NCBI GenBank assembly: GCA_015661395.1 | Contig: JACWML010000010.1 | Coordinates: 2,499 to 66,498 of the forward strand | Origin: Methanomicrobia archaeon | GTDB lineage: Archaea; Halobacteriota; Bog-38; Methanoflorentales; Methanoflorentaceae | Length of the DNA stretch: 64,000 nt | Reading direction: 5' to 3' | Part shown: positions 4,911-49,213 of the stretch, one piece after another | Layout of the letters: each line of letters begins with the position of its first letter | Numbering within the stretch: position 1 is the first letter of the stretch | The notes under the pieces: generated by a model | Seen by the model: only the letters and a program-made list of their open reading frames with translations | Databases searched by the model: none | What the model was told of the DNA's origin: nothing | Program-made: the position numbers and the translations under genes

Positions 4911-4913
4911 GTC

Positions 4914-5234
4914 CTATCGCCTCACCACGATGTTGTACCCAATCGCCCTGCGCAGCATCCGTTCGATGTAGTCGGTGCGATCGATCTGTCTTGTTCTCGA
5001 AGGTATCGGAATGATTATTGGTCTGTGCAGCTTTTCGATTTTTTCCATGAGCTTATCGTCCAATGAAGCCATAAAATCCTCGTTCACCGCGACAATGCCG
5101 GTGTCATCCTTAAATAACAAAGGGGGGATTATGCTCATAGCCTCCGCTAAGGTAGCCACTTCGAGAACCTCGACTCCCGCCAGCCGAAAACCCGGTGCCG
5201 TTTCTGGGTCGGTTACGACTACAAATTTATACAA
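4914..5234 (-). CDS. atpF: A-type ATP synthase subunit F
   Basis: 106 aa. Size and position between atpC and atpA. Confidence 0.8.
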   Translation of the reverse strand: MYKFVVVTDPETAPGFRLAGVEVLEVATLAEAMSIIPPLLFKDDTGIVAVNEDFMASLDDKLMEKIEKLHRPIIIPIPSRTRQIDRTDYIERMLRRAIGYNIVVRR

Positions 5235-6285
5235 AGACCAGTTCCTCCATCACTTCCTTTTCTGGCACGTACTCGGACTTGCACATCGCTATGATCCGGA
5301 TGTTGGTGATCTCGTTGAGCTTGGCCCACAAATAACCAATGACCAAGGCAAGACTTAGCGGATCGCCAGAGAACAAACTCAGGGCTTTTTGTAAGAGAAA
5401 CTTATCGAGCTCTTTTTCAAATGGGGATATCTTTTCTGCGGTGATGTACTGGTCCGGAAGCTGGGCGAGGAAGGCGTAAGAAGTGCCCGCCAATTGTTTG
5501 GTAACGCCGTCCATCGTTCGAGCTTTGCTTAAAGCCGAGAGCTTATCGACGTTTAACTCTTTTCCCCCGGAAATGAAGTAGTACTGGGGGTCCTCAAGTT
5601 CAACCTTGTCGCGAATGATCCGCAAAACGTTTTTTATGTTGGTCACGTCTATTTCCGTCCGCACTATCCCCCGAATGATCCCTTCATCGTAAGAATCACC
5701 AGCGACGGCGTCTAGAGCGTGGTTATAGTAAAACTTGTCGAGAGCATACTCCAACACAACGAGATCTCGCGTTTCGCTGAATTCCTTAAAATGTTGCGTT
5801 AACGGCCGTGAATATTCGATCCCCCACGTCGCAAGTAAGTCAATAACTGCTTTGACATCTGGTTGCTTAATCATCTCGGTGAGCGTCGCATCGCTAAGCG
5901 CTCCGGCAGGTGCAAGGCTCTCTGCGATCTCTTCAGGCACCTCTTGGATATTTTTCCCTCTCAAGATCGTCTTTATGTTTTGGATGTCCCATTTGTTCAG
6001 GAATATGTTAATAAGCGTTTCAGCGTCTTCGCCTTTCACAAAACTTAATATCAATCGAAAGGTCTTGCTGAGATTCCGCCGCAGCGCGTCTTCGACGCAC
6101 GCGAGACCGATATATTTGACACTCGCATCTTCTAGGTCTTGTCGGTACGGCGTGTTTTCTAACTCGTCGACAAAGGAGTTGATGTCCATTTTGGCCCCTA
6201 AGGCCTCGAGTTCTTTCCGCTCAAGGAGACGGCTTTTCATGCCCCTTATGCGCGCACCGATGTACTCGTAGTCCACCTTAGTCAC
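5227..6285 (-). CDS. atpC: A-type ATP synthase subunit C
   Basis: 352 aa helical protein in the canonical operon position. Confidence 0.85.
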   Translation of the reverse strand: MTKVDYEYIGARIRGMKSRLLERKELEALGAKMDINSFVDELENTPYRQDLEDASVKYIGLACVEDALRRNLSKTFRLILSFVKGEDAETLINIFLNKWDIQNIKTILRGKNIQEVPEEIAESLAPAGALSDATLTEMIKQPDVKAVIDLLATWGIEYSRPLTQHFKEFSETRDLVVLEYALDKFYYNHALDAVAGDSYDEGIIRGIVRTEIDVTNIKNVLRIIRDKVELEDPQYYFISGGKELNVDKLSALSKARTMDGVTKQLAGTSYAFLAQLPDQYITAEKISPFEKELDKFLLQKALSLFSGDPLSLALVIGYLWAKLNEITNIRIIAMCKSEYVPEKEVMEELVFV

Positions 6286-6952
6286 CGAATAGCGTGGAAA
6301 AGATCTCTCGTTTCAGGAGTTCTTTGGCATTGTTCAGTCTTGATTCAATCGTATTGGTTACGACCACCTTTCCGTCTTTGGTGCTGACGGCTAAACCTCC
6401 TGCGCTGGTCAAATCACCGACGATCTCGGAGTTCCGGCCTAGTTCATCTAACACCTGCCTGCATAGAGTTTCGTCCCGCGTATCGATATGAAGGCTTACC
6501 TTCTCTCCTTCGAGTTCGCGAACCGCTTCTTGGAGCATCTTCTTGAAATCTTCTTTGTAACTGGGGTTATCTCTAAAACTGTCTAAACTTTTTTTTGCGT
6601 CGAAAAACGCTCGATGTATGACTGCGTCCTTCTCTTTTATGATCCGCATTTTATTTTCGGCCTTGGCGTTGTAAATCAGTTTGTTTCGCTCTATCTCAGC
6701 CGATTTTTGTGCGTTCTCGCAGTGTGAGGCCTTAATCGCCTCAGCCTTTGCTTCTGCGCTTCTTTTTATTTCTGCGGCTTCTTGATGCGCCTTTTGTATC
6801 ATCTCTGTGATACCCTTTTCAGCGCTTACCCCCATCGACGCAATCAAATTTTCGTATGTCATTCGCCCCAACAGCCTTTTTTTCGGCTCTCCTTTGATGA
6901 GCAGTTTTTTTTGCGCGCTAGCGACTAGATTCCGATTGGTATTCTGAAACAA
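6278..6952 (-). CDS. atpE: A-type ATP synthase subunit E
   Basis: Charged coiled-coil N-terminus (AEIKRSAEAKAEAIKA) and globular C-terminus. The true start is probably an internal Met (MTYENLIASMGVS...). Confidence 0.8.
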   Translation of the reverse strand: MFQNTNRNLVASAQKKLLIKGEPKKRLLGRMTYENLIASMGVSAEKGITEMIQKAHQEAAEIKRSAEAKAEAIKASHCENAQKSAEIERNKLIYNAKAENKMRIIKEKDAVIHRAFFDAKKSLDSFRDNPSYKEDFKKMLQEAVRELEGEKVSLHIDTRDETLCRQVLDELGRNSEIVGDLTSAGGLAVSTKDGKVVVTNTIESRLNNAKELLKREIFSTLFGD

Positions 6953-7013
6953 CAGGAGATTTCATTGTAAACCCAGCAGTGTGCAGCGCCACCATTGAAA
7001 GGCCTAAGCGTCG

Positions 7014-7238
7014 TCACATCGTAGGCAGAACGAAAAGGATAATCGCAGCGACAACGAAGCCTAAAATGACTAAAGTTTCTGGAAGTGCCACAAACACGAG
7101 CGCTAAGCCGAATAATTCTGGTTTTTCTGCAATCACTCCTGCTCCTGCTGCACCGATTCTTGCCTGAGCTATCCCAGTTCCGAGTGCACCCAATCCAAAA
7201 GCTATTCCCGCACCAATCGCTATCGACCAATCGAGCAT
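7014..7238 (-). CDS. atpK: A-type ATP synthase proteolipid subunit K (c subunit, single hairpin)
   Basis: 74 aa with two TM helices, a Gly-rich helix 1, and the conserved carboxylate in helix 2 (ALPETLVILG). Confidence 0.85.
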   Translation of the reverse strand: MLDWSIAIGAGIAFGLGALGTGIAQARIGAAGAGVIAEKPELFGLALVFVALPETLVILGFVVAAIILFVLPTM

Positions 7239-7469
7239 TTTTCCAACTCCTATGGTTTTTTTGTCAGCACCGCGTCTTACGGTAACATCGTGATCCCACG
7301 CGGATTTGCGACTTGGATCCCAATAATATTCTACTCGGTGGCGCGCTTGCTTGTCGCATATCTGCGTTCATGTCCTCCACCTTCGCAGAGAGGTTTGATG
7401 ACCTTTTTTTGCCCCCGCTCTACAGACGGCTTCGACGTCGTGCGCTGCATAAAAGCTACCTCCGGACTC

Positions 7470-9392
7470 TCACTTTGCCGTCCCCCGCTTGAAAGGATCG
7501 TACGATCTGCCCCCGCCCTCATAAAACTTTGAATAGAATTCTACGATATGTAGCCTGAGTGCTTGAATCGAGGGGCTAAACATACACAGGACGACATTTA
7601 ATCCGTGAAGCAACACCGCTACCAAAAGACCTACCAATACGATTCCCATTGAGCTTCCTAGCTCATTGGCTACAAGCGCGAGTACTACGGAAGCCATCCC
7701 TATTGCCATGAGTCTCGCGTACGAGAGGACGTTTGTAAACGTACTCATGACTTCTATTGCTCCGGCAATTCCGCCTCCATACATGACTAGCGGGAGTCCA
7801 ATGACGAGTAGAACTATGCCGGGCGCTACGAGTATAGAGGGAACCACTGCAACTATCGCGAGCAGAATCACTATGATGCTCGCCAAGGTGAGGATCATGC
7901 CAACCCTGGTACATACAAGCTTTTGATTGCTGCGTCTGCGCGCGTTCACCACCCCTATGCCGAGGCCAAAGAATACGTGAAATACCCCGATGGCGACCGT
8001 GAAAATGATCAGCGGCACGATAATTTTAATCCTATCTAATGTCACCCCATCTATCGTTACGGGCTGTATCCAGCCCATCATTTGCCCGAGATTTCCGAAG
8101 AACTCGCCATAGAGATAGCCAAAGAACATTGTGGGAATTGAGCAGATGATCAGGATGTTCATCAGTTGCTTGATTGTGGGACTGCGTTGTCCGTAGAACC
8201 ATCTCACCACCAGCGCAAACACGAGTATACAGATGCCGTACCCAATGTCGCCTACCATGAGGCCAAAGAAGAACGGGAAAAACAGCGCGAGCAGCAGTGT
8301 CGGCTCAATCTCGCCGGACCGTGGTGTACCTATCAAATTGCTGAGAGTCTCAAAGGGCTTGACAATTCGCGGATTGTCGTAACACGACGGCGCGTTGTAG
8401 TTCTCCTCTCGACTTACGCTAAGGTCGTTTACGATGACTCTGCCTTCAAATGCCTTTTTTAATGCATTTTTAGTGTTTGCGAGCTGCTTTTGTGGCACCC
8501 AACCAATCATAACGAAGGTGTAGTCTGTCTGCCCGAACTTGGTGAAAACACTGAGCTCTTCATTCCTGTCCTCAAGCACTTCTTTGAGCACGCTGAGCTT
8601 CGGGTACCAGTTCCTCGACAGTTCTACTAACTCCTCGTTGACGGCGCTCATTTCGACCGTTGATTTCTGCCGTTGTTCGTCGACTAATGTCAGAACCTGG
8701 TCAAATGGCTTATCCAGATATTCGGGCGGGAGTCGAACTTCATTCACATTTTGGGACCAAATAAATGAGTGGACCTGGTCAGAATACCTTTTATTAAACA
8801 CCGTCACCGCAGCCGTCGTCGCCTCGTCGACATCCGCTGACATGAGCTCAAATTGGTTGTGCGTGATCTCGACTAGCGCTGAGCGAACAATCTCGAGGAC
8901 ATCCTTAAATTCCCTTTGGATGAGAATTACGGTGACTTCAAACCCCTCTAAAATAGGAAGTTGAGCCTCCAAAGGCTGCAGCTTCTCAATAACTTCTTCG
9001 TAATGAGTGAGATTCGTAAGCGTAAATTCAATATCACTTTTTCGCGTAGCTAGCTCTTTGGTTACCGTCTCGAGCTCGCCGATAACCTGGTTTGCCTCGT
9101 CGACGAGCTCATCATCATTTTTCCACCGAAGTCCCTCATAGATTTGGGTCTTTAGCGCCTCGTTCACGGGCATCGTGGGGAGCAGGTGAAACATCCCGCT
9201 GACTTTGACTAACGCACCTGCGATGTCGATTTTTGGGCTCGCCTGCACGCGTCGCAGCATCGTATCTCCTGGGGCGATAGTCGTCGACGCGTCTTCTAAA
9301 TGAACCGTCCCTAGGTTGTACAGAAAATCAACCGTGCTGTGCAAGTCATCTTTTGGTCCAATGACCTGGATCTTGGTCATTTTCTGCAGCAT
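7470..9392 (-). CDS. atpI: A-type ATP synthase subunit I (a subunit)
   Basis: 640 aa. Soluble N-terminal half followed by a multi-TM C-terminal half. Position upstream of atpK. Confidence 0.85.
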   Translation of the reverse strand: MLQKMTKIQVIGPKDDLHSTVDFLYNLGTVHLEDASTTIAPGDTMLRRVQASPKIDIAGALVKVSGMFHLLPTMPVNEALKTQIYEGLRWKNDDELVDEANQVIGELETVTKELATRKSDIEFTLTNLTHYEEVIEKLQPLEAQLPILEGFEVTVILIQREFKDVLEIVRSALVEITHNQFELMSADVDEATTAAVTVFNKRYSDQVHSFIWSQNVNEVRLPPEYLDKPFDQVLTLVDEQRQKSTVEMSAVNEELVELSRNWYPKLSVLKEVLEDRNEELSVFTKFGQTDYTFVMIGWVPQKQLANTKNALKKAFEGRVIVNDLSVSREENYNAPSCYDNPRIVKPFETLSNLIGTPRSGEIEPTLLLALFFPFFFGLMVGDIGYGICILVFALVVRWFYGQRSPTIKQLMNILIICSIPTMFFGYLYGEFFGNLGQMMGWIQPVTIDGVTLDRIKIIVPLIIFTVAIGVFHVFFGLGIGVVNARRRSNQKLVCTRVGMILTLASIIVILLAIVAVVPSILVAPGIVLLVIGLPLVMYGGGIAGAIEVMSTFTNVLSYARLMAIGMASVVLALVANELGSSMGIVLVGLLVAVLLHGLNVVLCMFSPSIQALRLHIVEFYSKFYEGGGRSYDPFKRGTAK

Positions 9393-13368: not shown

Positions 13369-15375
13369 CTACGCGCCCTTGTTCTTCTCTTTCCAGTTGC
13401 TGTAGTTGCATTGCGGGCAGCCCAGATCCCAAAATCGCTTGCCGCTTTGTACCTTGATAAGTCGCATGTCGTGCTGTTTGCACTTGCGCGCAGTTATGCG
13501 CAGCCTTCCTGATTTCGGCAGGGGGAGCCCAAAGGTGCACTGCGGGTATCCGCTGCACCCCACAAAGCGTCCGCCCCGTTTTGAGCGACGCACGACGAGA
13601 TCCGAGCTGCACTGAGGGCACGTCCCAACGGTCGCATCTCCGCGTAGCCCTTTTTGCAGCGATATGCTAATCTCTTCGTGTTGCTCATCAAGCGTGCTTA
13701 AGACCTTGTCGAGAATGTCCCTCGAGCTGACCACAACGAACTCCTTTGACAGCGTTCCCGCTTTGACCTTCTCCATCTCCTCTTCGAGGAGTCGGGTCAT
13801 CTCAGGTTTCGTAATTGTGGGGGCGTAGCGTTCGAGCGATTGCGTGACGCTGCACGCGATACCGGTGGGACGAAGGGGATTCACGTCAACATAGCCGCGC
13901 TGAGCGAGTTTCTTAATGATCTCGTGGCGGGTGCTTTTCGTCCCCAACCCGAGCTCTTCCATCTTCTTGATCAACTGGCCTTGTCCCCATCGCTGCGGCG
14001 GCTGCGTCTCCTTCTCCACAAGCTGTTTGTTCGTGACGGTGAGAACGTCGCCCTCGCGAAGGTCAGGGAGGTACCGCTCTTGCGTCTGTGCATACGGATA
14101 GTGATAGCGCCAGCCTTGATGTGAAAGTTCGAGCCCGGTCGCTCTGAACAGCTCCCCTTGGGAGTCCAGCGTGACCTTTTTTGTGCACCATCGCGCCGGG
14201 TCGGAGAGCGTTGCAAAGAACCGTCGCACAACGAGCTCATACACCTTCCAGCTTTGTGGCTCGAGGTCAGCTTGTGTAGCGCGCATCGTGGGATAGATCG
14301 GCGGATGGTCGGTCGTTTGCTTTTTACCTCGGGTGGCGACCAGCTGCTTCTTTTGTAGCAGCAAGCGAGCATTCTCAGCGAATGGACCGCTTCTGAACAT
14401 GTTCACTGAGAGGCGGAGATCGAGCTCATTCGGATAGACTGTGTTGTCCGTGCGCGGATAGCTTATCCATCCCGCCGTGTAGAGGCGCTCCGCCGTTTCC
14501 ATAGCGCGGCTTGCTGAAATACCAAGCGCGCTTGCTGCAGCGAGAAACTCGGTCGTGTTGAAGGGTTTTGGGGGGGTGTCTTCTCGTTCGGTTTTGGCAA
14601 ACGTAACGACGGTGGCCGTGTCGCCGATGTTTTGTGCCGCCGCCGTTGCGCTCGCTTTGTTTCGAAATCGGTCTGTTTGGTGCTTTGCGTGAAACGTTTC
14701 GCTGCTCGTGCTGAGGTCAATATATATTTCCCAGTATGGCTCTGCCACGAATTGTGCAATTCTTCGCTCGCGATCGACGATCAGCGCGAGCGTCGGACTT
14801 TGTACGCGTCCCGCAGACAAGAAACGATTGCCAAGTCGCTTGGCAGCCGTTGATATGTACCGCGTGAGCGCAGCACCCCAAATGAGGTCCACCGCCTGCC
14901 GTGCCTCCCCGGAATGAGCGAGGTTGAGGTCAATTTTGGTTGGCGATCGAAACGCGCGTTTGACCTCAATGGGGGTCATCGAACTAAACCGCACGCGGTC
15001 CACCCCTACGTCCTTGACGGACTTGACGATCGCGCACGCCTCTAAACCGATGAGTTCGCCTTCCGTGTCAAAGTCAGTCGCAATAGTCACCCGGTCGGCA
15101 TCCTTAGCGGCTCGTTTGAGTCCTGACACGATGCTCTTGTGCGTGGGAACGGTGACGACGTCAGCCCGGATTAGCTCGTGAAGGTTTGTCTTCCAGTCGC
15201 GGTATTCATCTGGGAAGTCGAGCTTGACGATATGACCCCTCAGGCCTAGCACGACCGTGCTATTGAAGCGATACGCGTTAGCGCTGGCGACTTTGGTTGC
15301 TGATGCTGCTCCGTCTGAGAGAATCTCGGCGATCCGCTTCGCCGCGATATCCTTCTCGGTCACGATGAGGTGCAT
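13369..15375 (-). CDS. topA: DNA topoisomerase I (type IA) with C-terminal zinc ribbons
   Basis: Toprim N-terminus [19 protein letters not shown], a catalytic Tyr region, and two C-terminal C4 ribbons (CPQCSSD...CSGYPQC, CKQHD...CPQC). Confidence 0.9.
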   Translation of the reverse strand: MHLIVTEKDIAAKRIAEILSDGAASATKVASANAYRFNSTVVLGLRGHIVKLDFPDEYRDWKTNLHELIRADVVTVPTHKSIVSGLKRAAKDADRVTIATDFDTEGELIGLEACAIVKSVKDVGVDRVRFSSMTPIEVKRAFRSPTKIDLNLAHSGEARQAVDLIWGAALTRYISTAAKRLGNRFLSAGRVQSPTLALIVDRERRIAQFVAEPYWEIYIDLSTSSETFHAKHQTDRFRNKASATAAAQNIGDTATVVTFAKTEREDTPPKPFNTTEFLAAASALGISASRAMETAERLYTAGWISYPRTDNTVYPNELDLRLSVNMFRSGPFAENARLLLQKKQLVATRGKKQTTDHPPIYPTMRATQADLEPQSWKVYELVVRRFFATLSDPARWCTKKVTLDSQGELFRATGLELSHQGWRYHYPYAQTQERYLPDLREGDVLTVTNKQLVEKETQPPQRWGQGQLIKKMEELGLGTKSTRHEIIKKLAQRGYVDVNPLRPTGIACSVTQSLERYAPTITKPEMTRLLEEEMEKVKAGTLSKEFVVVSSRDILDKVLSTLDEQHEEISISLQKGLRGDATVGTCPQCSSDLVVRRSKRGGRFVGCSGYPQCTFGLPLPKSGRLRITARKCKQHDMRLIKVQSGKRFWDLGCPQCNYSNWKEKNKGA

Positions 15376-16784
15376 CAGAGTTGCTCCCGAATGAGACGAT
15401 TGGTGAGGGTGGGATCAGCCCGTCCGCGTGTCTTCTTCATGACCTGACCGACGAGAAAGTTAAGCGCGCCTTTCTTGCCGCTGTGATAGTCGTCAACGGC
15501 CTGTGGGTTCTCTTCGATCGCTTGCGTAACGGCAGCGGTGATCTGTTCGATTGGGGCAGCGTGAAGTGCCTGCGCGTCGATGATCTCGCACGGGGTCCCT
15601 CCGGTGTCGAGGACAGTTCGTATGACCTCGACGGCTGCCTTTTCGGTAATGGTTCCCTGGTTCACGTTGGCTATGACGTCGATTAAGAAGTTGGGCCTGA
15701 ACGCGTCAAGGTTCAGCCCGCGATAGTTCAGCTCGCCCTGAAGCACGTCAACGACCCAGCTTGCCGCCGCCGACGGGTCGACTCGTGCGGCGACCGTTTC
15801 GAAGTAGTCGGCCAAGGGCTTCGACGCGGTGAGCACTTTCGCGAGGTAATCCGAAATGCCGTATTGCGCGATGAAGCGGTGACGTTTTGTATCCGGGAGT
15901 TCGACTTGCACTTGCTCGCGGAACTGCTCGGCCACCGGTTCGGGATCGACGCGCAGAAGATCAGGTTCGGGGAAGTACCGATAGTCGTGTTCTTGCTCTT
16001 TTGAACGGAGTGAAATTGTGATGCCGCGTGCCTCGTCGAAGTGCCGCGTTTCTTGCGTGATATGGATGCCTCTTCGAAGCAAGTTTCGCTGGCGAGTGAT
16101 TTCAAACAGGAGCGCTTTTTCCACGCCCTTGTATGAGGAGATGTTTTTGACTTCGGCCCGTTGCCCGCCGGCGATCGAAATGTTAGCGTCGACGCGAAGC
16201 GATCCCTCGAGGTTGCCGTCGAAGACGTCGAGGTATTCAAGGATGTTGCGCAACTTGTTCAGAAAGCGACGCGCTTCCTTGGGGGCGCGAAGGTCAGGCT
16301 CGGTGACCACTTCGAGCAGCGGCACGCCGGATCGATTATAATCGATGAGTGAGTACTGCGCCTTTTCGATGGTTCCGCGGTACGTAAGCTTCCCTGGATC
16401 TTCTTCCAAGTGCACGCGCCTGATTCGAATCGTCCGTTCCTGCCCTGCGCTGTCGACTGTCAAGTAGCCATTAGTGCCGAGCGGAAAGTCGTACTGGCTG
16501 ATTTGAAAGCCTTTCGGCAAATCTGGGTAGTAGTAGTTCTTCCGATAGAACTGCGTCTGTTGCACCGAGCAGTTGAGCGCTTTCGCGACCCGCTCGGCGT
16601 AAACGATTGCCATCTCGTTGACGACCGGTAGACTCCCCGGAAGCCCGAGACAGATAGGACACGTGTGGGTGTTTGGCTCTGAGTCCTGATAACGCGTTGA
16701 ACATCCACAAAAAAGCTTCGATTGGGTTGTGAGCTGTGTGTGCACCTCAAGCCCTATAATAATGTCGGTTCTTTCCGTGGTCAT
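15375..16784 (-). CDS. gatB: aspartyl/glutamyl-tRNA amidotransferase subunit B
   Basis: 469 aa. [19 protein letters not shown] and [13 protein letters not shown] are GatB hallmarks. The size fits GatB rather than GatE. Confidence 0.85.
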
Positions 16785-29565: not shown

Positions 29566-31010
29566 TCACAGGTGGAGCCCTTGAGCCACGCGTGCTCCGA
29601 GTTCGCTGTCTGCCTCGATAAAGTGATCCACCATGCGCTCCTGCATTGGTTTGTCGGCCTTCTCGAGTGAGTCGACAATGTTGTCGATCAGATGGTCTTG
29701 ATCGATCGTGCTGAGCGATCGGTACCTGTCGCCCGCTTGTGCGAAATCGTTCTTGAGGCTAATCTTTCGGCGAGTGACGTCCCCCTCGATCCGCTCCATG
29801 GACGTCGGGCCGGCAGGCGCTGCCTCCGGCGTGCCACCAGCGAGAGTGTTCGGTTCGTAGTTTACCGCTCCACGGAACGATCCTGATTGCATTGCGCCGT
29901 CGCGCTGGTCGTTCTCAACCGGTGCGTGCGGACTATTGATGGCGAGCTGTAGATAATTGGGCCCAAGGCGATGTCGCTGGGTGTCCGCGTACGAGAAGAC
30001 ACGGCCTTGCAGCAGCTTGTCAGCAGACGGTTCGATACCCGGAACGATGGCGCCGGGCGAGAACGCGGCCTGTTCTGTTTCTGCGAAGTAGTTCTCGGGG
30101 TTCCGATTCAGAACTATCTTGCCTACCGACATCAGCGGGAAGGTATCCTCGGGCCACGTCTTGGTTGCGTCAAGAGGGTCGAAGTCCTGTTTCAACTCGT
30201 CGACGATATCCATCAGCTGCACCTTGAGTTCGTACTCCGCCTCGCCTCCGTTTGCGATCGTATCCCAGAGGTCCCGAGTGAGGTAATCAGGGTCGGTCCC
30301 TGCCAAAGCTGTAGCTTTATGACGGTCAAGTGATTGGACGCCCAGCTTCGGCTTCCAGTGATACTTCACATAGCGCGCTTCCCCCGCTGCGTTGATCCAC
30401 TTGTAGGTGTTGACGCCAAATCCTTCCATCGTCCGGTAGCTCTTAGGCGTCCCGCGGTCCGAAAACAGCCAGGCGATCATGTGTGTCGACTCGGGCGTCA
30501 GGGAGATGAAATCCCAAAAGCGACTGTTTGCGGAGGAGCTCGTCGGGATGTTCGAGTCTGGCGCGGGCTTGAACGAGTGCACCATATCAGGAAACTTGAG
30601 GGCATCGCGGATGAAGAAAACAGGCAGGTTGTTTCCCACTAGGTCGTAATTTCCTTCTTCGGTGTAGAACTTGACTGCAAACCCTCGCGGGTCGTGCGCT
30701 GTGTCCGCAGATCCCCGAGCGCCGACGACCGTTGAAAAACGAACGAAGACGGGCGTCTGCGTTTCCGGATCCTGGAGGAACTTCGCACAGGTATACGGGG
30801 CCATGCTTTGGTAGACTTGGAAGTAGCCGTGGGCCCCGCCCCTTTCGCGTGTACGACGCGCTCCGGGATGCGCTCGCGGTCGAAGTGCGCGAGCTTTTCG
30901 ATCAGATGCACGTCTTGCAGCAAGACTGGTCCACGCTCACCGACGGTCAGTGAACTTTGGTTATCGGTGACGGGAACGCCTTGATTCGTGGTGAGGTGTT
31001 TGTCGCTCAT
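29566..31010 (-). pseudogene. katA: monofunctional haem catalase (KatA/KatE clade), split by a 1-nt indel in a G/C homopolymer at ~30831-30842
   Basis: N-terminal frame (30639..31010) reads [59 protein letters not shown] then goes out of frame. C-terminal frame (29566..30804) reads ...[64 protein letters not shown]... Adding one C to gggcccc restores [13 protein letters not shown], the canonical catalase motif. Confidence 0.8.
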
Positions 31011-33137: not shown

Positions 33138-35332
33138 GTGAACGAACGCAGCGATGCACCGCCTGAGCGCTTCGAAATAGTGTCTGGCTTTCTCCGCGCT
33201 TTTTCTGATGCCGCGGTGCTCACGGACGCTGAAGGCATCATCCTCGCCGTTAACGAAGCAGCTGTCGAGCGGATCAGCACTAGCGCTGCCACACTCGTCG
33301 GCGCCTACGCGTACGATGTTCTTCCTGCTGAGGCAGCGCAGAGGCGCCGGAGATGGATGGCAGAGGTCGTCGCCTCAGGTGCCCCGATGCACGTGGAAGA
33401 ATGGTGCGAAGGGCGACGTTTTCGAATATCCCTTTATCCTCTTGCCAAAACGAACGGCTCGGTCACACGCGTGCTCATGCTTGACCAGGCCGTGACGGAA
33501 GAGCGTGACGTCATTGACGAACAACAGCGCCTTGCTGTGCTTGACTCGGCAACTGACGCGATCATAATTTTTGATCTCGATGGGCACATAAAGTACTGGA
33601 ATAAGGGTGCCGAACAGCAGTATGGGTGGAAGCAAGACGACGTGCGCGGGGTGATAATCCATACGTTGCTTCACACTGTCTTTCCATCCCGCCTTGAGGA
33701 CATCATAGGTCAGCTCTTGCGTGCGGGAAGGTGGGCGGGAGAGTTACGACATACCACTCGCGCCGGCATCGCCATTACGGTCATGAGCCACTGGACGTTG
33801 CAGTACGGTGCACGGAATGTGCCGGTGGCGATCCTCGAGACTGCGCGGGATATCACTGAGCGGAAGCAGGCTGAAGAGAAGCTCCGTGCCGCCTCGCTCT
33901 ACGCAAGAAGCCTTATCGAAGCAAGTCTCGATCCCCTCGTCACCATCAATGCTGACGGAAAACCGACAGGTCTTTTCTGACGGCTTCGTCAGAGACTACC
34001 CTCTGGCCATTCGGCACAAATCGGGCAGAATCACGGATGTGTTGTACAACGCGACACTGTTCAAGAATGAACGGAACGAGATTCAAGGAGTTTTTGCAGC
34101 TGCGCGGGATCGAGGTTATCCACGTCATCAACGAAGCTAGCGACCTTCCTACGTTGTTTGGAGAGGCCCTAGCTACGACGATTGAGCTGCTGGGGTTTGC
34201 TGCTGGATTCATTGCCACTGAAAACGAAGCTGGGCGGCTGCAGGTGCGTTATGCACATAACTTACCTTCAGCTTTCGTTGAATCCCTCGATCAGATCGAT
34301 ATCGACGCCACCCCCTACGTGCGAGACGTGTTTCGGAAAGGGGAATCTGTTGTCGTCGAGGAACTCCCTGCTGACGCGCTTGCTTCAAGGCACGGAGTGC
34401 ACGGAGCCGCCGTTTCCGTTCCCGTCTTCGCCGAAGGTGCCCTTATTGGACAATTCACGATATACGCGATGCGCCCGCACTCGTTTACGCCAGAGGAGCG
34501 AAATCTGCTTCGCACGATCGCAACCGAATTCGGCACGGCGTTGTCGAAGCTTGAGGCACAGGCAGCCGCTCATCACTACGCCGAGGAACTCGCGCAATAT
34601 TCTGCACATCTTGAAGAGCTCGTAGAGAAACGCACTGCGCAGCTCAGGGACGTCGAGCGCCTCGCCGGCATCGGGGAGACCGCTGCTATGATCGGTCACG
34701 ATCTCCGCAATCCCTTGCAAGGTCTCCAGTACATTGTCGATCTGCAGAGGCTCCGCTTCGAACGCATGTCTCCCGCCGACCGCAGCCGCGACGAGTGGCA
34801 AAAAGAACAAGCGCTCTTTGCCAGGATCAGCGACCAGATTTTTTACATGGACAAGATTGTTGGCGACCTCCAGGACTACGCCCGTCCGATCGTCCCTGAG
34901 CGCGAAGAGATCGTTGTCGAGAAGCTGATCGAAGACGTCGTTCAATCGCTGCCGCACACGGATGGTGTGCGCATTGCGACGGAGGTTCCAGACCTGCAAT
35001 TGATGGCGGATCCCCATCTGATGCATCGCGTGTTAGCAAACCTAATCCTCAACGCCGTGCAGGCGATGCCGGACGGTGGGACGGTCACCGTTAGCGCATC
35101 TACCGACGATGGCTCGGTGGCGATAAGCGTGCACGATACTGGCATCGGCATTCCGAACGACGCTAAAGACAAGCTCTTTAAACCGCTCTTTACCGGCAAG
35201 GCGAAGGGAACGGGACTTGGTTTAGCAGTGGTGAAGCGGATCGTCGAGGCGCACGCTGGGCGAATAACTGTTGAGAGTGAAGTCGGAAAAGGATCAACGT
35301 TTACCGTAAATTTCCCCAGCACTGAGGGTTGA
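33138..35332 (+). pseudogene. multi-domain sensor histidine kinase (PAS-PAS-PAS-GAF-HisKA-HATPase_c) disrupted at ~33960-33980 and ~34100
   Basis: Frame 0 (33138..33980) gives two complete PAS domains and the start of a third (SLIEASLDPLVTINADGK), then stops. Frame 1 (to 34140) carries the end of that PAS (QVFSDGFVRDYPLAIRHKSGRITDVLYNATLFKNERNEIQGVFAAARD) with about 40 central PAS residues missing. Frame 2 (34037..35332) carries GAF, the HisKA H-box (IGHDLRNPLQGL) and HATPase (N, G1 DTGIGIP, G2 GTGLGLAV). Confidence 0.55.
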
Positions 35333-45312: not shown

Positions 45313-47898
45313 TCACCCGGGAACAGGTTTTCGACGCGAGGGTTTGCGCTTGTTGGCAGGCATTCGAACGATCTCCATTCCCACCTCGGCGAGCAGGCGT
45401 GGTATGTTACGCGCGGCGTCTCGGTCGTACTCCTTCATGTGTTCGGGAAGCTCTGAATAAGGTATGATCCACGGGCTTAGCTTCTTCTCTTCGTCCTTTA
45501 TCGGATCCAATTTCCACCCGTCAAGGAGGCGTTCCACGTTCCAGCGGCCGTGCTCAAGCTCCGCCATGATCTCCACCTCGTCGGGAGTGAATTGCATCCG
45601 CGTCACGGTATCGCTGCGCGCCTTCCGGACGGTATAGCCGACGGCGTTCAATTTATGGGCGATATCGTCTGCCTGCGCCCTGTTGGATTGTTTCAAGTCG
45701 TCGCGGAGCTTGTCCCATTTGGCGCGCCGGGGTTCCTGGCTTTGGGTGCGCATGAGGAGCTTGCGATAGTTGTCATGGATCTCCTGCGCCATGCGCTCGC
45801 GCACCGGTGTGGGGAGCGTTTGCTCGGTTGAACTGATGAACGCCTGTGCCGAGATTGGATCCTTTGGCAGCTGAATGAGCTTCTCGGATTTGCTCCATTC
45901 GTCGTCTTGGATCAACCGCGCCGCTTCGTGTCCGCTTCCTGCGACAATGGCGACGCTCGCGCGCAACGCGAGCGCGAGGCGGTATTCTATGCCGGCGATG
46001 CTTTGTCCATCGATGCCAAGAAGCTTGACGCTCTTGGGCGAAACGTCTGATCCGATGAGATCAACCCAATACTGCAGGGTTTCCGAAGGGTTGAAGCGCA
46101 GGGGTTCCGAAGCTTTGAAGCCCTCGCTATCGGTGCGCCGGATATCGCAGTATCGCTGATCGACCGCGGCGTCAGGAAGCACGCGCGGCACGAATCCTAT
46201 GGTCTGCAGCTCGGGGTAGCGCTCTTGCACGTCGCCGACAATGCGGCTGATGCCGCTGCCCGTGCCGCCCGAGATGAGCGTCCCTGTGAACCCCTTGAAG
46301 GCCTCGAGCATGAGCCCTCGATAGCTCGCTGCGTATCCCTCATCGGGAGAATCGTAGCCGCCTGCGACGATGGCTACCGGCTCCTTTAAGCGTCGGCTAT
46401 TGGGCGTCGTCAGCTTTTTCAGGTCGGCGCGTGCCTCTGCGGCGTCGAATCGTCCGGCCCATCCGATGAGCAAGATGGTGCGCGCCCATTCGTACCCGCC
46501 CAACGCCTCGTGCACGGGCGCGAGCTTCACTAGTGAGTGGTAGGCATTTTCGATCGGCCACTCGGCGGTGCTCATCTGGATCGCCTTCGCATAGGCGATG
46601 AGGCTTTCGTGGCTCTCACCGAGGAGCAGGTGGAGCATCCCGAGGGCGTAGTATGCCCACGGGATGTTGATGCCGACGGCGGTCTGACCCCAACAACGTT
46701 GTATCGCCATGCGCATCAATGGTCGCACCACGTCGATGATCGACGTCGTACCACGGTGACTGATCTCGAGCTCGAGATAGTTGATGAGCGCGTAGGGATC
46801 TGACGGATCGAGCTCGAACGCCTTACGGTAGAGCTCGCGCGCCCGCGGTTCGTTGCACTCGCGATACGTGTCGGCCAGGCGCACGTACGTGTCGGCATTC
46901 TCGGCTTTCGCGAGCGACTCGTCAAGGTAGCCCTGTCCCTTCACGTAGTCCTCGCTCTCGGGCGTCCCACTGTTCTGCTTGCAGAGGGCGACACCCAGAT
47001 CTTTGAGAAGGGGGGCGTAGCCCGTGTCAGCGTACGCGCTGAAGGTCTCGATAGCCTGCTCCCAGTCGCCCAGCGTCATCGCCAGTCGGCCGATGCTGTG
47101 CGCGTGCTGGACGTTGTGCGGGTCGTGCTCGAGGATCATCTTGAGGGTGCGTATCTCATCTCGCACCTGCGTCTCGTTCATGTAGGCGCTGTAGTTGGCG
47201 GCATACGCCGTAAGCCGGTTCTCGATCGTCGCGAAGGATTGATCGGCGTCTTCGAGCAGCGCCGCTATTCGCGCGAGCTCGCGCTGCCACTGTCTGGGGA
47301 AGGTGAAAGCGCCCTTGTAGGCCTTGTCGTGACTGAAGTCGGCCCACGCGTGTTCGAGCAGCGTGCGCACCTGTATTTCCGCTTTCAACTCGGCGACCGT
47401 CTCGGGCACATCGATCGAAACCCCGCCGACAGTAATCGAACCGGGACGATGTAGGCTGACGATGTAGTGGACCGAGCGGTACCCGAACTCGGCCGCCTTG
47501 AGGCGCTGGTCAATATTGAAGCTGTTGTCCCAATCGATATCGAAAACGCGATCGGAATCACTCGGCTCAGCCTGCTTCTCGATGTACGTGCAGATCGCCG
47601 TCACCTCTGTCTGGGTATGGGTGATGACGCGTCCGCCGCAGAGGTCGGTGAAGTCATTGACGGGATCGCGCGTCTCATCCTGTTTTCGAATGATCTTCTC
47701 AGCGAAACTCGAAACTGATTTCGGCCGCGTCTGAACGATCGCGAGGGGCGCATACCGCTTAGCGAGTGCATCGAGGATGTTGTAGAGTACCTGCGCGAGC
47801 TCTTTATAACGTGGTTCCACGAGCTCGAAGTTCTCGATCTGTCCCTCATACCACGTGCGGAACTGCTCTTGATCAGCCTCACTCATCGTGCTCGGCAC
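45313..47898 (-). CDS. 861-aa multidomain protein: N-terminal RelA/SpoT-type nucleotidyltransferase (alarmone-synthetase-like), TPR repeats, a SLOG/LOG-like Rossmann domain, and two C-terminal RyR repeats
   Basis: RelA/SpoT blocks RPKSVSSFAEKIIRK, TDLCGGRVI, EFGYRSVHYIV and EIQVRTLLEHAWADFSHDKAYKG, including the catalytic Asp and Glu positions. TPR-like helices at ~250-400 aa. G-rich Rossmann loops VAIVAGGYDSPDEGY and ISGGTGSGIS. C-terminal AELEHGRWNVERLLDGWKLDPIKDEEKKLSPWIIPYSELPEHMKEYDRDAARNIPRLL matches the RyR domain consensus, preceded by a degenerate RyR half (EIHDNYRKLL...KWDKLRDDLKQSNRAQADDIAHKLNAVGY). Confidence 0.85.
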   Translation of the reverse strand: MPSTMSEADQEQFRTWYEGQIENFELVEPRYKELAQVLYNILDALAKRYAPLAIVQTRPKSVSSFAEKIIRKQDETRDPVNDFTDLCGGRVITHTQTEVTAICTYIEKQAEPSDSDRVFDIDWDNSFNIDQRLKAAEFGYRSVHYIVSLHRPGSITVGGVSIDVPETVAELKAEIQVRTLLEHAWADFSHDKAYKGAFTFPRQWQRELARIAALLEDADQSFATIENRLTAYAANYSAYMNETQVRDEIRTLKMILEHDPHNVQHAHSIGRLAMTLGDWEQAIETFSAYADTGYAPLLKDLGVALCKQNSGTPESEDYVKGQGYLDESLAKAENADTYVRLADTYRECNEPRARELYRKAFELDPSDPYALINYLELEISHRGTTSIIDVVRPLMRMAIQRCWGQTAVGINIPWAYYALGMLHLLLGESHESLIAYAKAIQMSTAEWPIENAYHSLVKLAPVHEALGGYEWARTILLIGWAGRFDAAEARADLKKLTTPNSRRLKEPVAIVAGGYDSPDEGYAASYRGLMLEAFKGFTGTLISGGTGSGISRIVGDVQERYPELQTIGFVPRVLPDAAVDQRYCDIRRTDSEGFKASEPLRFNPSETLQYWVDLIGSDVSPKSVKLLGIDGQSIAGIEYRLALALRASVAIVAGSGHEAARLIQDDEWSKSEKLIQLPKDPISAQAFISSTEQTLPTPVRERMAQEIHDNYRKLLMRTQSQEPRRAKWDKLRDDLKQSNRAQADDIAHKLNAVGYTVRKARSDTVTRMQFTPDEVEIMAELEHGRWNVERLLDGWKLDPIKDEEKKLSPWIIPYSELPEHMKEYDRDAARNIPRLLAEVGMEIVRMPANKRKPSRRKPVPG

Positions 47899-47940
47899 CT
47901 TCGCTCATTTCGAATTGATGTAGCACCCATAAGTATCGCT

Positions 47941-48357
47941 TCACTCCGGCATAACATTTCCCTGCGATTCTGCAAAGAAGCGCCGAAACTGCGTCGCAAG
48001 GTCAAGCTGATGCATCTCGGACGGCTGCACCCACCGATAGGAATCGTGCTCGCTGCTGAGTTTGACGTCCTCTGTGACGAGGTTCCCTTCCATGATGAGG
48101 CACGCCACTTTGACCGCGGGCACCTCGTACTCGATGGCCCCCAGCAATCGCCGCACGGATATCTGCAGGCCTGCTTCTTCGAACACCTCTCGCTTCAATG
48201 CCTCATCCAGCCGCTCTCCCGGATCGAGCTTGCCGCCGGGCGGTTCCCACTTCCCCGGATTGGTCTTTGAATCGGGTGATCGGCGCAGAAACAGGCATTT
48301 GCCCTCGTTGTTTTGAAGCAGTGCATAGACGGCGATTCCCCACGCTTTTTCAGTCAT
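47941..48357 (-). CDS. NUDIX hydrolase
   Basis: Complete Nudix box GGKLDPGERLDEALKREVFEEAGL. Start placed at the internal ATG (MTEKAWGIAVYALL). The upstream extension to 48621 is Arg/Cys-rich and unlikely to be coding. Ends 43 bp before the RelA/SpoT gene on the same strand. Confidence 0.8.
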   Translation of the reverse strand: MTEKAWGIAVYALLQNNEGKCLFLRRSPDSKTNPGKWEPPGGKLDPGERLDEALKREVFEEAGLQISVRRLLGAIEYEVPAVKVACLIMEGNLVTEDVKLSSEHDSYRWVQPSEMHQLDLATQFRRFFAESQGNVMPE

Positions 48358-48487
48358 TATAACCGATCCTCCTCGAGCGTCGTGTGCGACGATATTAGGG
48401 TTTAAACTAGGGTTATAGGGCGCCTTTGCCTTAAAAGTGCTGCTTTCGCACCAAGAACAAGCGTCGCAGTCAGCGCGCGCCAGACAG

Positions 48488-49213
48488 CTAGTATTGGAGC
48501 GCGTACCAACACGCAAGCGCGGTCGCGAGTACCATGTCATCGTATTCGCCGTCGCGCCACGCTTCCTCCCACGGGCCGCCGGAACTGATGCTGACCCTCG
48601 TAGCGAAATCCTGCAGCTCATCTTTTAACAGATCCCACAGCGGCAGGTCTTTTGTGGCGCGGAGCCAACTTTTGTTGAGCAGCAGCTTTACTGAGCGTGC
48701 GAGCTCACGCTTCGGGACGCGGTAAAAGCCGTCTCCGTACGAAACGTCGTCCCCGCCGATCACCACGGGCAGCGGCAGGAGGCGTGCCGCGCGGAACGCG
48801 TCGATGGCGGAGAGGCCCACGCCCGTGGCGTCCACGACGAGGTAGTATGGCACCAACCGCCGTGCCTCGGCCGACCGTTTTGGGGTGAGCGCGCGGATCC
48901 GACCTATGATCGTGAGCCGGGGCGTGCCTGGGGGTAACCGCTCTATGTGGCGAACCCGCAGCTTAACTGGTTGATCGAGCGGTTCACCGCGGCCCGGGCG
49001 CAGTCCTCCGAGTGTTGCCCACGGGGCGTCGGGCGCTCCGCCGGCGAGCAGGCTCTGGCCGATTTTTTCGATCGCGACGACAGCGGAAAAGTCATCGGCG
49101 CGGCCGAGATCACAGCTGATGAACACTCCGGCCAAACTGCGCGGTGAGCGCTGACGCGGTTCGTAGCGCGCATACCGATTGGAGAGGTCACGGGCGTCCG
49201 AGTCGCTTATCAC
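48488..49213 (-). CDS. possible RNase H-fold nuclease (phage terminase large-subunit C-terminal / RuvC-like pattern)
   Basis: N-terminal beta-strand Asp pattern (GVFISCDLGRADDFSAVVAIE), a second one (YYLVVDATGVGLSAIDAF) and a C-terminal DD-x3-ATALA-W (YDDMVLATALACWYA), as in RuvC and terminase nucleases. Pattern-level only. The ORF is Arg-rich. Confidence 0.35.
   Translation of the reverse strand: MISDSDARDLSNRYARYEPRQRSPRSLAGVFISCDLGRADDFSAVVAIEKIGQSLLAGGAPDAPWATLGGLRPGRGEPLDQPVKLRVRHIERLPPGTPRLTIIGRIRALTPKRSAEARRLVPYYLVVDATGVGLSAIDAFRAARLLPLPVVIGGDDVSYGDGFYRVPKRELARSVKLLLNKSWLRATKDLPLWDLLKDELQDFATRVSISSGGPWEEAWRDGEYDDMVLATALACWYALQY

Follow-up and report, generated by a model that had tools for sequence, protein, structure and literature searches.

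A RelA/SpoT-TPR-SLOG-RyR protein and its NUDIX hydrolase neighbor belong to a large archaeal and bacterial family, a possible switch in stress or virus defense under nucleotide control

The window, by which we mean the whole stretch of 64 kb of archaeal DNA analyzed here, encodes an 857-residue protein that joins a RelA/SpoT-type synthetase to TPR repeats, a SLOG domain and a tandem RyR domain, with a gene for a NUDIX hydrolase directly upstream. We hypothesize that the two genes constitute a conflict-type (defense or stress) module, in which a sensor-gated RelA/SpoT pyrophosphokinase is paired with a NUDIX enzyme that removes its product, a reading to which we give slightly less than an even chance. 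The module has the look of a switch against stress or viruses that is controlled by nucleotides, and it belongs to a large family in archaea and bacteria, which comprises thousands of 50%-identity clusters without a characterized member.

The two-gene unit

The first-pass annotation reported an 861-aa ORF at 45313..47898. The ORF is real and runs for 861 codons without interruption, as seen in the ORF listing and the translation, but it lies on the minus strand, and the plus-strand frame over the same interval is full of stops. The stop codon occupies 45313-45315 and translation likely starts at the ATG at 47886 (MSEADQ...) rather than at the GTG at 47898, which would add four residues to the protein; the ATG is preferred because a database protein with 100% identity (P0001, found on three contigs) is 857 aa long. 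All of the motif strings quoted in the annotation were found in the translation. The large gene, its domains and the adjacent features are arranged as follows.

45313..47886, minus strand: gene for the RelA/SpoT-TPR-SLOG-RyR protein, 857 aa (ORF listing, translation, identical database protein P0001, AF2 model)
47191..47886, minus strand: RelA/SpoT (SAS-like) pyrophosphokinase domain, residues 1-232
46402..47181, minus strand: TPR / TPR-S helical repeats, residues 236-495
45817..46395, minus strand: SLOG (LSDAT_prok-type) Rossmannoid domain, residues 498-690
45352..45813, minus strand: tandem RyR (R12-like) domain, residues 692-845
47887..47940, minus strand: spacer of 54 nt separating the NUDIX gene from the large gene; a terminator scan found no site in it
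47941..48357, minus strand: NUDIX hydrolase partner gene, 138 aa, ATG at 48357, directly upstream of the large gene
48401..48417, minus strand: TATAA and TTTAAA, A/T-rich elements resembling a TATA box, upstream of the ATG of the NUDIX gene by 44-60 nt, read by eye

The worry, raised in the same annotation, that the large ORF is an assembly chimera, or that it is otherwise spurious, has a probability that is practically nil, since hundreds of independent contigs carry the architecture in full length, with the same domain order in 139 of the best 150 among 3,655 cluster representatives (50% identity, E <= 1e-30), the identical protein occurs on three other contigs, AF2 gives a single confident model (pLDDT 88.7, pTM 0.81) and the base composition shows no break across the gene.

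The NUDIX protein (Pfam match E 9e-21) has an intact NUDIX box, GKLDPGERLDEALKREVFEEAGL, and is MutT/NudI/NudG-like, not ADPR-pyrophosphatase-like. A GGAGGA ribosome-binding site precedes the ATG at 48357, and the orthologous partners are 137-148 aa in length. A longer ORF of 226 aa, starting at 48621, is probably not used; residues 90-217 alone align to NUDIX structures (best 3GRN, E 6e-29). The spacer is only 54 nt long and has no terminator-like site, and the two genes are therefore probably co-transcribed, with the TATAA and TTTAAA elements as the tentative archaeal promoter of the unit.

The association of the two genes is conserved within the family, on archaeal and bacterial contigs alike. 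Of 54 non-redundant loci, 42 contain a NUDIX gene, and in 38 it immediately adjoins the large gene, on the upstream side in 31 and on the downstream side in 7. Furthermore, the pairwise distances of the NUDIX and the large proteins are correlated (r = 0.79, Mantel p ~0.001, n = 29), and in four representatives (P0302, P0340, P0355 and P0360) the NUDIX domain is fused to the N-terminus of the large protein. Two other candidates were rejected. The structure 3GRN is that of a NUDIX protein from Methanosarcina mazei, which is 43% identical to the one in the window, and an operon with a family member there would have put the system in a tractable organism, but as a family operon partner it fails, the gene being solitary, with no RelA/SpoT or RyR neighbor beside it in the M. 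mazei genomes. Likewise, an ORF of 241 aa located upstream of the NUDIX gene (48488-49213) was considered as a third component, but it is conserved only in close relatives and thus represents local synteny rather than a part of the system.

Domains and conserved residues

The four modules proposed by the first-pass annotation, RelA/SpoT, TPR, SLOG and RyR, are all confirmed by Pfam and by family-level matches. The RelA_SpoT profile (PF04607; residues 57-196, E 1.8e-15, 57.6 bits versus a cut-off of 27) and the RyR profile (PF02026; residues 775-844, E 7.4e-15, 55.4 bits versus a cut-off of 27.4) both score above their cut-offs in the regions to which these domains had been assigned, and they are matched by 55 and all 56 of 56 family members, respectively.

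The N-terminal domain has the SAS-type fold and contains the catalytic and substrate motifs of RSH synthetases, namely the basic R-x-K...K, D-x-x-G-x-R (its Asp binds Mg), G-Y-R-S-x-H (its Tyr is the stacking residue), E-I-Q-V/I-R-T (its Glu is catalytic), and H...Y-K. All of the 75 sequences compared share thirteen residues (R54, K56, K64, D81, G84, R86, E133, G135, H140, E170, Q172, T175 and H186), and 74 of them also keep Y136, a degree of conservation that supports the earlier prediction of a catalytically competent synthetase. The stacking Tyr and the Mg-binding Asp are common to the guanine-, adenine- and tRNA-acceptor classes of these enzymes. The best family matches of the domain are a phage protein family (phrog_9640) and a PADLOC defense candidate (PDC-S33), where the latter match (E 1.1e-13) covers profile positions 48-274 of 349 and residues 35-278, that is, the RelA/SpoT part only. 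HD, TGS and ACT/RIS domains are absent from the Pfam matches of the large protein at E <= 1, and no Pfam match to SIR2 was found in it.

Several TPR families match residues 237-443, with E-values down to 3.5e-9, and the TPR-S profile is matched by 34 of the 56 family members. For the SLOG domain, the match to LSDAT_prok (PF18171) in the protein from the window (residues 624-678, E 0.0019, 18-20.9 bits) is below the cut-off of 25.4; across the family, 52 of the 56 members match this profile at E <= 0.01, the best at 2.3e-9. The fold of the domain is Rossmannoid, its first strands are followed by Gly-rich loops, the Glu of a G..G.....E motif is conserved, and the Pfam clade to which it is assigned is LSDAT, not LOG. 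Its structural matches include the SLOG domain of ThsA bound to 3'cADPR and the MHR1/2 region of TRPM2, which is an ADPR-binding region of that channel.

What had been described as a degenerate RyR half in front of a conserved RyR domain is a complete tandem R12-like domain, consisting of two repeats in a pseudo-symmetric unit, of which repeat 1 is divergent (H704..Y707, S734-N735-R736) and repeat 2 canonical (H779..W782, R786, K797, D821-R822). The region has sequence matches to RyR1/2/3 and to the bacterial structure 3NRT. It shares with the phage RyDEP and the animal R12 (RY12) domains the PF02026 fold as a two-repeat unit and the ligand-contact residues H779, W782, R786 and D821; unlike these, it is found in a cellular multidomain enzyme and not in a stand-alone viral sponge or glycosidase or in a Ca2+ channel.

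The statement that no function has been assigned to RyR domains of prokaryotes is now outdated. Binding or cleavage of 2'/3'cADPR has been described for RyR-domain proteins of phages (PMC13232231), and the R12 domain of RyR1/RyR3 binds ADP/ATP (PMC13642953, PMC12627627). In a sequence alignment, W782, R786 and K/R797 correspond to W882, R886 and R897 of RyR1, which hold ADP/ATP by stacking on its adenine and binding its phosphates (PMC13642953). H779, W782 and D821, mapped by spacing only, are set at the same intervals as H75, W78 and D117 of RyDEP, which contact cADPR (PMC13232231). The equivalents of the ligand contacts (H779, W782, R786, K/R797 and D821) are invariant or nearly so in the family. 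However, the phosphate-binding His (H904 in RyR1, H100 in RyDEP) is replaced by Ser or Asn, here S804, and the ligand may therefore differ.

Family distribution and gene neighborhoods

Family members are present in archaeal and bacterial MAGs. As judged from the source names of the protein matches, the hosts include Bathyarchaeia, Halobacteriota and Altiarchaeales, as well as Chloroflexota, Planctomycetes, Omnitrophica and Eisenbacteria, and the proteins are 45-50% identical. The host of the window is archaeal, as indicated by subunits of an A-type ATP synthase and by Euryarchaeota MAGs as the closest genomic relatives, and at least two close archaeal MAG loci with the large protein were recovered in a contig search; the bacterial members show, however, that the family is not specific to archaea. 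The architecture was presented in the first-pass annotation as an undescribed combination. In the literature we found no description of a RelA/SpoT-TPR-SLOG-RyR protein, allowing that an earlier, purely computational mention may exist, but with 3,655 representatives the combination is not rare. The variants among the best 150 representatives have lost RyR, gained an extra RyR, are fused to KaiC or NUDIX, or carry helical N-extensions of no known family. No swapping of the effector on the TPR-SLOG-RyR scaffold was seen among these 150, a list biased to full-length matches.

The neighborhoods are rich in conflict genes. Of 59 non-redundant loci, about 20 have a TIR gene no more than 6 kb away; Pfam validated 24 of the 26 TIR ORFs, and in one locus (L068) a ThsB-like TIR gene is located directly upstream. 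STAND NTPases (NACHT, AAA_16) are frequent, and WD40 genes are also co-located. In 12 of the 59 loci, 2TM-RCK channel-like proteins with a near-identical tandem RyR module are encoded beside the enzyme, sometimes between the NUDIX gene and the large gene, and the same module is attached to a P-loop ATPase in one neighborhood protein. The attachment of RyR to several neighboring proteins is how shared sensor domains behave.

Other observations count against a role in conflict. The window contains neither a TIR gene nor a second RyR gene in its 64 kb, and its flanks consist of housekeeping genes for lipid synthesis, a HAD protein, a permease and the trp operon. Among viral contigs, we found no full-length member and only two stand-alone RelA/SpoT proteins. 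About two-thirds of the loci have no TIR gene within the available flanks, and a TIR-made signal is thus not an obligatory input. The window has no tRNA or Rfam matches. The suggestion in the first-pass annotation of a self-contained second-messenger or abortive-infection effector is in general agreement with the NUDIX partner and the TIR- and STAND-rich neighborhoods, but "self-contained" is incomplete, the NUDIX gene directly upstream having been missed.

Proposed mechanism and alternative explanations

We propose that the large protein is a RelA/SpoT-type pyrophosphokinase that would take pyrophosphate from ATP and attach it to a purine nucleotide at its 3'-OH, with (p)ppGpp or (pp)pApp as the putative product and the CCA end of tRNA as a less likely acceptor. 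The C-terminal sensor region, consisting of the LSDAT-type SLOG and the tandem RyR domains, would gate this activity by binding adenine-nucleotide or ADP-ribose-type ligands, the likely ones being ADPR or 2'/3'cADPR from TIR proteins, or ADP/ATP, and the TPR array could serve as a scaffold or as a relay from sensor to enzyme. The probably co-transcribed MutT-like NUDIX protein may hydrolyze the pyrophosphorylated product, which would both set a threshold and protect the cell, much like the HD hydrolase of long Rel/SpoT proteins and the SAH antitoxins of toxic SAS. It could also act on the input signal rather than on the product. The analysis shows which domains are present and how they fold, that the residues for catalysis and ligand contact are conserved, and that NUDIX, TIR and RyR-channel genes are linked to the large gene; the ligand, the product, the direction of control (from sensor to enzyme) and the biological role are inferred.

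Degradation of (p)ppGpp is a known activity of some NUDIX enzymes (PMC7584652, PMC3153485), and Atkinson et al. suggested that NUDIX proteins could fill this role in archaea with SAS genes but without a known hydrolase (PMC3153485). A dedicated NUDIX hydrolase would be an answer to the puzzle of how these archaea dispose of the alarmone. The proposed mechanism would also connect two systems that are usually studied apart, the RelA/SpoT alarmones and the NAD-derived ADPR/cADPR signals, and it gives RyR domains of prokaryotes a role in the cell that can be tested, a first biochemical function of the phage versions having been reported only months ago.

A more specific version, which we consider rather unlikely, is that the family serves cells as a receptor-effector of immune signals of the ADPR type, with the RyR R12 domain and the LSDAT/SLOG domain known from TRPM2 gating an alarmone or tRNA pyrophosphokinase to which the NUDIX enzyme is linked. 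If true, archaea and bacteria alike would have a new immune output similar to that of Thoeris, and a function in cells rather than in viruses would be established for the first time for prokaryotic RyR domains. The sensor modules would then be the ones that animals use in Ca2+ channels, and the nucleotide-sensing modules of RyR and TRPM channels could plausibly have come from this prokaryotic family.

We also considered the possibility, unlikely in our view, that the module generates a signal instead of responding to one. The TPR array would sense a protein trigger, for example a viral one, and the RelA/SpoT domain would make a diffusible messenger such as (pp)pApp, which the NUDIX enzyme clears and for which the RyR domains are receptors, both in cis, as feedback, and on effectors such as the 2TM-RCK-RyR proteins. 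This would agree with the near-identical RyR modules on channel-like proteins in 12 of the 59 loci, with the binding by R12 domains of adenine nucleotides bearing several phosphates (PMC13642953) and with the Pfam name of TPR-S, which denotes a predicted sensor repeat. However, most loci, including the window, have no separate RyR effector, so that the product would have to act alone, and RyR domains are not known to bind 3'-pyrophosphorylated nucleotides. The order of the domains speaks for a sensor-gated effector. In ThsA-like effectors of this type, the enzyme is N-terminal and the nucleotide-binding domains are C-terminal, as they are here.

Another hypothesis, to our minds distinctly unlikely, is that the pair is a non-canonical counterpart of a bifunctional Rel/SpoT serving a stringent-like response of archaea and some bacteria, unrelated to viruses, with NUDIX as the hydrolase, RelA/SpoT as the synthetase, and SLOG and RyR sensing the energy state of the cell (ADP/ATP) or NAD-derived metabolites. 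The NUDIX-synthetase-regulatory fusions mirror the organization of long RSH, the RY12 domain has been described as an ADP sensor (PMC13642953), a NUDIX hydrolase has been suggested for archaeal SAS (PMC3153485), and the only sequence matches of the N-domain in PDB are the housekeeping SAS structures RelQ and RelP (E 3e-7 to 6e-3), which together with the housekeeping flanks in the window would fit such a role. It is less easily reconciled with the 45-50% identity between bacterial and archaeal members and the scattered lineages of the named hosts, which suggest horizontal transfer rather than a vertical core function, with the frequent co-location of TIR, NACHT, AAA_16 and WD40 genes, or with the phage family and defense candidate as the best family matches.

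Finally, it is very unlikely, in our view, that the protein is a multi-enzyme for stepwise making or destroying of a modified nucleotide, such as in cADPR turnover, in which SLOG and RyR would not be sensors but glycosidases, the former an N-glycosidase like LOG and the latter similar to RyDEP. The conserved H/W/D residues are not indicative of catalysis, because they are also kept in the non-catalytic RyR sponges and in animal R12, and seven of eight tested RyDEP homologs showed no cleavage (PMC13232231); furthermore, Pfam places the SLOG domain in the LSDAT clade and not in LOG.

The sensor-gated pyrophosphokinase module that we favor is, by analogy, a variant of the toxSAS-hydrolase pairs and the Thoeris-like sensor-effectors, and we found no published description of it. 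Like the toxSAS pairs (FaRel, FaRel2, PhRel and CapRel, some of which are neutralized by SAH), it would combine an RSH synthetase with a co-inherited, adjacent hydrolase able to undo the product, and its N-domain is most similar to phage- and defense-linked RSH families (phrog_9640, PDC-S33); a stand-alone relative of 392 aa is encoded on a phage contig (L092). However, the toxin in those pairs is a small single-domain SAS, whereas the protein described here has 857 residues and four domains, and its neighbor is a NUDIX protein (adjacent in 38/54 loci) rather than an SAH HD-hydrolase or a protein antitoxin. The differences from Thoeris (ThsB TIR and ThsA SIR2-SLOG) are that the effector would be a RelA/SpoT pyrophosphokinase and not a SIR2 NADase or TM/Macro, that the SLOG domain belongs to the LSDAT clade, that a RyR sensor and a TPR array are additional, that the conserved second gene is NUDIX, and that a TIR gene, which the window lacks, is not obligatory.

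The order of hydrolase, synthetase and regulatory domains resembles that of long RSH proteins (HD hydrolase, SYNTH, TGS...ACT), here as an operon and literally so in the four NUDIX-fused representatives, but NUDIX takes the place of the HD hydrolase, and TPR-SLOG-RyR that of the ribosome-sensing TGS/ACT. TRPM2 likewise combines an LSDAT/MHR1-2 SLOG with a C-terminal NUDT9-H NUDIX domain, but the large protein contains no channel, the NUDIX protein is MutT-like and not NUDT9/ADPRase-like, and the proposed output would be nucleotidyl-pyrophosphate transfer rather than ion flux. The presence of SLOG, NUDIX and RyR in one probable prokaryotic operon, with RyR also on channel-like neighbors, bears on the origins of the sensors in TRPM2 and the ryanodine receptor.

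The large gene and the domains of its product

The reading frame given in the first-pass annotation (45313..47898) is uninterrupted over 861 codons, but it lies on the minus strand, the corresponding plus-strand frame being riddled with stops. The ATG at 47886 is the likely start, because a protein identical over its full length and found on three other contigs in the database protein search (P0001) is 857 aa long. The two genes of the module are:

45313-47886, minus strand: large gene, 857 aa, RelA/SpoT-TPR-SLOG-RyR
47941-48357, minus strand: NUDIX hydrolase gene, 138 aa, directly upstream of the large gene

Pfam placed RelA_SpoT at residues 57-196 (E 1.8e-15), several TPR families within residues 237-443 (E down to 3.5e-9) and RyR at residues 775-844 (E 7.4e-15), with a sub-threshold match to LSDAT_prok ("SLOG in TRPM, prokaryote") at residues 624-678 (E 0.0019). 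When 56 members were scanned individually, RyR was recovered in all 56, RelA_SpoT in 55, LSDAT_prok in 52 (best E 2.3e-9) and TPR-S in 34. An AlphaFold2 model based on an alignment of 75 family members had a mean pLDDT of 88.7 and a pTM of 0.81 for the full protein, and residues 495-857 modeled alone reached 89.2 and 0.87. The central helical region found TPR proteins as structural matches, and the Rossmannoid domain resembled SLOG folds, with scores of 17.1-17.3 for TM1055, 15.3-15.4 for TRPM2, about 14 for LOG enzymes, about 12 for DprA and, in the same comparison, 10.9-11.4 for the ThsA-SLOG domain bound to 3'cADPR. The per-member scan and the structure models therefore bear out all four domains named in the first-pass annotation, including the RyR pair, and the motifs quoted there are all present in the translation.

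The residues of RSH synthetase chemistry are all invariant or nearly so across the 75 aligned sequences, among them D81 (Mg2+), Y136 (acceptor stacking) and E170 (the catalytic Glu). Sequence does not tell which acceptor is used, as the conserved Asp and Tyr occur alike in enzymes that make (p)ppGpp or (pp)pApp and in those that modify tRNA. The best family match of the N-domain overall is phrog_9640, a phage family of unassigned function (E 9e-35); it also matches the PADLOC defence candidate PDC-S33 (E 1e-13), and its sequence matches in the PDB are RelQ/RelP-type structures only. On a phage or prophage contig (L092:2659-3837), a RelA_SpoT protein of 392 aa, stand-alone and sharing 35% identity with the N-domain, has an AbiEi-like regulator and terminase gpA in its vicinity, a gene arrangement like that of toxSAS/CapRel.

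In the SLOG domain the glycine loops are retained, and one Glu, E634, is invariant. In RyR repeat 2, seven residues (H779, W782, E785, G790, W791, P805 and R822) do not vary among the 75 sequences, and three more (R786, D821 and K/R797) hardly do. Alignment of residues 772-839 with RyR1 872-939 makes W782 the counterpart of W882, which stacks against the adenine ring of ADP/ATP and whose mutation abolishes the nucleotide-dependent effect (PMC13642953), and R786 and K797 the counterparts of the phosphate-binding R886 and R897. The spacing of H779, W782 and D821 is exactly that of H75, W78 and D117, which contact 3'cADPR in the phage enzyme RyDEP (PMC13232231); the phosphate-binding His (RyDEP H100, RyR1 H904) is replaced by Ser.

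The NUDIX partner

The large protein had been described as self-contained, a view that overlooked the same-strand NUDIX gene directly upstream. The long NUDIX ORF (47941..48621) is misleading, as the part that aligns to NUDIX proteins is confined to roughly the last 130 residues; the ATG at 48357, preceded by GGAGGA, is a candidate start that gives a product of orthologue size. The NUDIX box is intact, the enzyme is of the MutT/NudI/NudG rather than the ADPR-pyrophosphatase type, and a terminator scan found no terminator-like site in the 54-nt spacer between the two genes. Degradation of (p)ppGpp by NUDIX enzymes is on record (PMC7584652, PMC3153485).

The pairing was seen in all eight loci first inspected, which range from Eisenbacteria to Altiarchaeales. 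Of 54 non-redundant loci whose upstream sequence was long enough, 31 have the NUDIX gene as the next gene upstream, 7 as the next gene downstream and 4 at another place in the locus. Pairwise distances of the two proteins are correlated (r = 0.79, Mantel p about 0.001, n = 29). Four cluster representatives (P0302, P0340, P0355 and P0360) carry NUDIX as an N-terminal part of the large protein itself, a Rosetta-stone fusion with the same hydrolase-synthetase-regulatory order as long Rel/SpoT enzymes. The box of P0360 appears degenerate (REVKLRTG instead of RE..EE.G). The closest solved NUDIX relative, at 43% identity, is 3GRN, a crystallised "MutT related protein" of Methanosarcina mazei; its gene (L090/L091, 7001-7438) was rejected as an operon partner of the family, being solitary in Methanosarcina beside an aldehyde ferredoxin oxidoreductase and a peptidase.

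Family distribution and gene neighbourhoods

A word-indexed search returned 762 matches to the large protein, the best 120 of them mostly full-length (about 830 aa), and a metagenome scan found at least 579 stretches encoding family members. An exhaustive search of 1.84 billion representatives gave 3,655 cluster representatives at E ≤ 1e-30, the 150th best still at about 1e-214. In the best 150 of these, the order RelA-TPR-SLOG-RyR was kept in 139, the RyR region was absent in 10 and an extra N-terminal RyR was present in 1. Source names among the best 120 of the 762 matches include Bathyarchaeia, Halobacteriota and Altiarchaeales as well as Anaerolineae/Chloroflexota, Planctomycetes, Omnitrophica and Eisenbacteria, these bacterial members sharing 45-50% identity with the window protein. 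Judged from these sequences, the family is a cross-domain one that has spread horizontally, and no archaeal speciality. That the ORF is a chimera is ruled out by the recurrence of the architecture across archaeal and bacterial members.

The closest among the genomic loci listed are Euryarchaeota MAGs. In the nearest of them (L001:5989-8524, 83% identity) two overlapping ORFs (5989-7776 and 7730-8524) take the place of the single large gene, probably an assembly frameshift error rather than the mark of a pseudogene. Some archaeal members from peat metagenomes (proteins P0040, P0054, P0058; loci L006, L007, L031-L035) carry a C-terminal KaiC-type ATPase (residues 838-1042 of P0058; about 1,058 aa in total), and their contigs also encode an archaeal-type histone. 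Helical N-terminal extensions of about 130 residues, neither TIR nor NUDIX, occur in P0298, P0304 and P0342.

In a Pfam census of immediate neighbours at 59 non-redundant loci, NUDIX (26) was followed by TIR_2 and AAA_16 (8 each), TrkA_N (7), NACHT and TIR (6 each), RyR and DUF4062 (5 each) and WD40-type domains (4-5). An iterated profile detected TIR ORFs in the flanks of 20 of the 59 loci (24 of 26 ORFs confirmed by Pfam), and in L068 a ThsB-like TIR gene lies directly upstream. Four of seven longer loci without a detectable NUDIX gene (L042, L049, L056, L068) have a TIR gene, in what is a small sample.

In 12 of the 59 loci the large gene has a neighbour whose product also bears a tandem RyR module, very similar to that of the large protein. 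This neighbour is usually about 600 aa long, with a pair of predicted membrane helices at the N-terminus, TrkA_N/RCK domains and, at the C-terminus, the tandem RyR, whose motifs are nearly identical to those of the large protein (L008:698-2494, L053:2819-4627, L065:4681-6507, L088:4645-6468, L047:1461-3278, L086:6708-8486, L068:4501-6453, L070:10556-12589; L044:621-3611, 996 aa, has additional RyR repeats). These look like prokaryotic channel-type proteins with a RyR R12 sensor. A third kind of carrier, the 853-aa protein at L065:1251-3812 (minus strand), joins a Walker A/B P-loop ATPase (GPPGSGKS, FFDEFD) to the same module; the likeness of its N-terminal region to a PfkB-type kinase is by eye only.

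The 64-kb window holds the two-gene core only, with no TIR or second RyR gene, and the flanks of the pair are housekeeping genes. A-type ATP synthase subunits A, B and I and an archaetidylinositol-phosphate-synthase-like gene identify it as archaeal; no tRNA genes or Rfam matches were found in it. Other features are:

1762-9392: A-type ATP synthase operon
13369-15375: topoisomerase I
15375-16784: GatB
29566-30804: catalase-like gene
34037-35332: bacterial-type histidine kinase
48488-49213, minus strand: 241-aa ORF just upstream of the NUDIX gene

The last of these matches phrog_27743 (E 6e-27), a viral family without assigned function; it has no Pfam match, and its conservation is confined to close relatives, e.g. 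locus L005. Together with the stretch at 49.2-51.0 kb, which is without recognisable genes, it may be a mobile-element remnant.

A proposed sensor-gated pyrophosphokinase and its alternatives

On the best-supported reading, the module is a pyrophosphokinase that is gated by sensor domains and paired with a hydrolase dedicated to its product. SLOG and RyR would bind a putative ligand of the adenine-nucleotide or ADPR type and regulate the RelA/SpoT domain by way of the TPR scaffold, and the NUDIX enzyme would remove the product. A role in conflict is suggested by the effector-then-sensor domain order, which is like that of Thoeris ThsA, by the conserved ligand-contact residues, by the RyR module common to other proteins of the same neighbourhoods, by the TIR/STAND company and by the NUDIX fusions. 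Against this, TIR is not obligatory and the context in the window is housekeeping.

Alternatively, the enzyme may generate a signal, its product being detected by RyR domains such as those of the RCK proteins. The family may also be a housekeeping Rel-like regulator that senses ADP/ATP, as the RyR1-like residues and the flanks in the window would allow; the TIR/STAND company argues for conflict instead. Finally, SLOG and RyR may themselves have an enzymatic role.

The combination of RelA/SpoT with SLOG and RyR, or its pairing with NUDIX, is undescribed in the papers searched, an earlier computational mention being possible. The RSH classification papers (PMC3153485 among them) name only an unplaced archaeal "divRel" and are silent on TPR, RyR or NUDIX partners. 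The module is akin to toxSAS-hydrolase pairs, Thoeris-like sensor-effectors and long RSHs, and is without a characterised member; in public annotation the family goes no further than "RyR domain-containing protein" or "ppGpp synthetase/RelA/SpoT-type nucleotidyltransferase".
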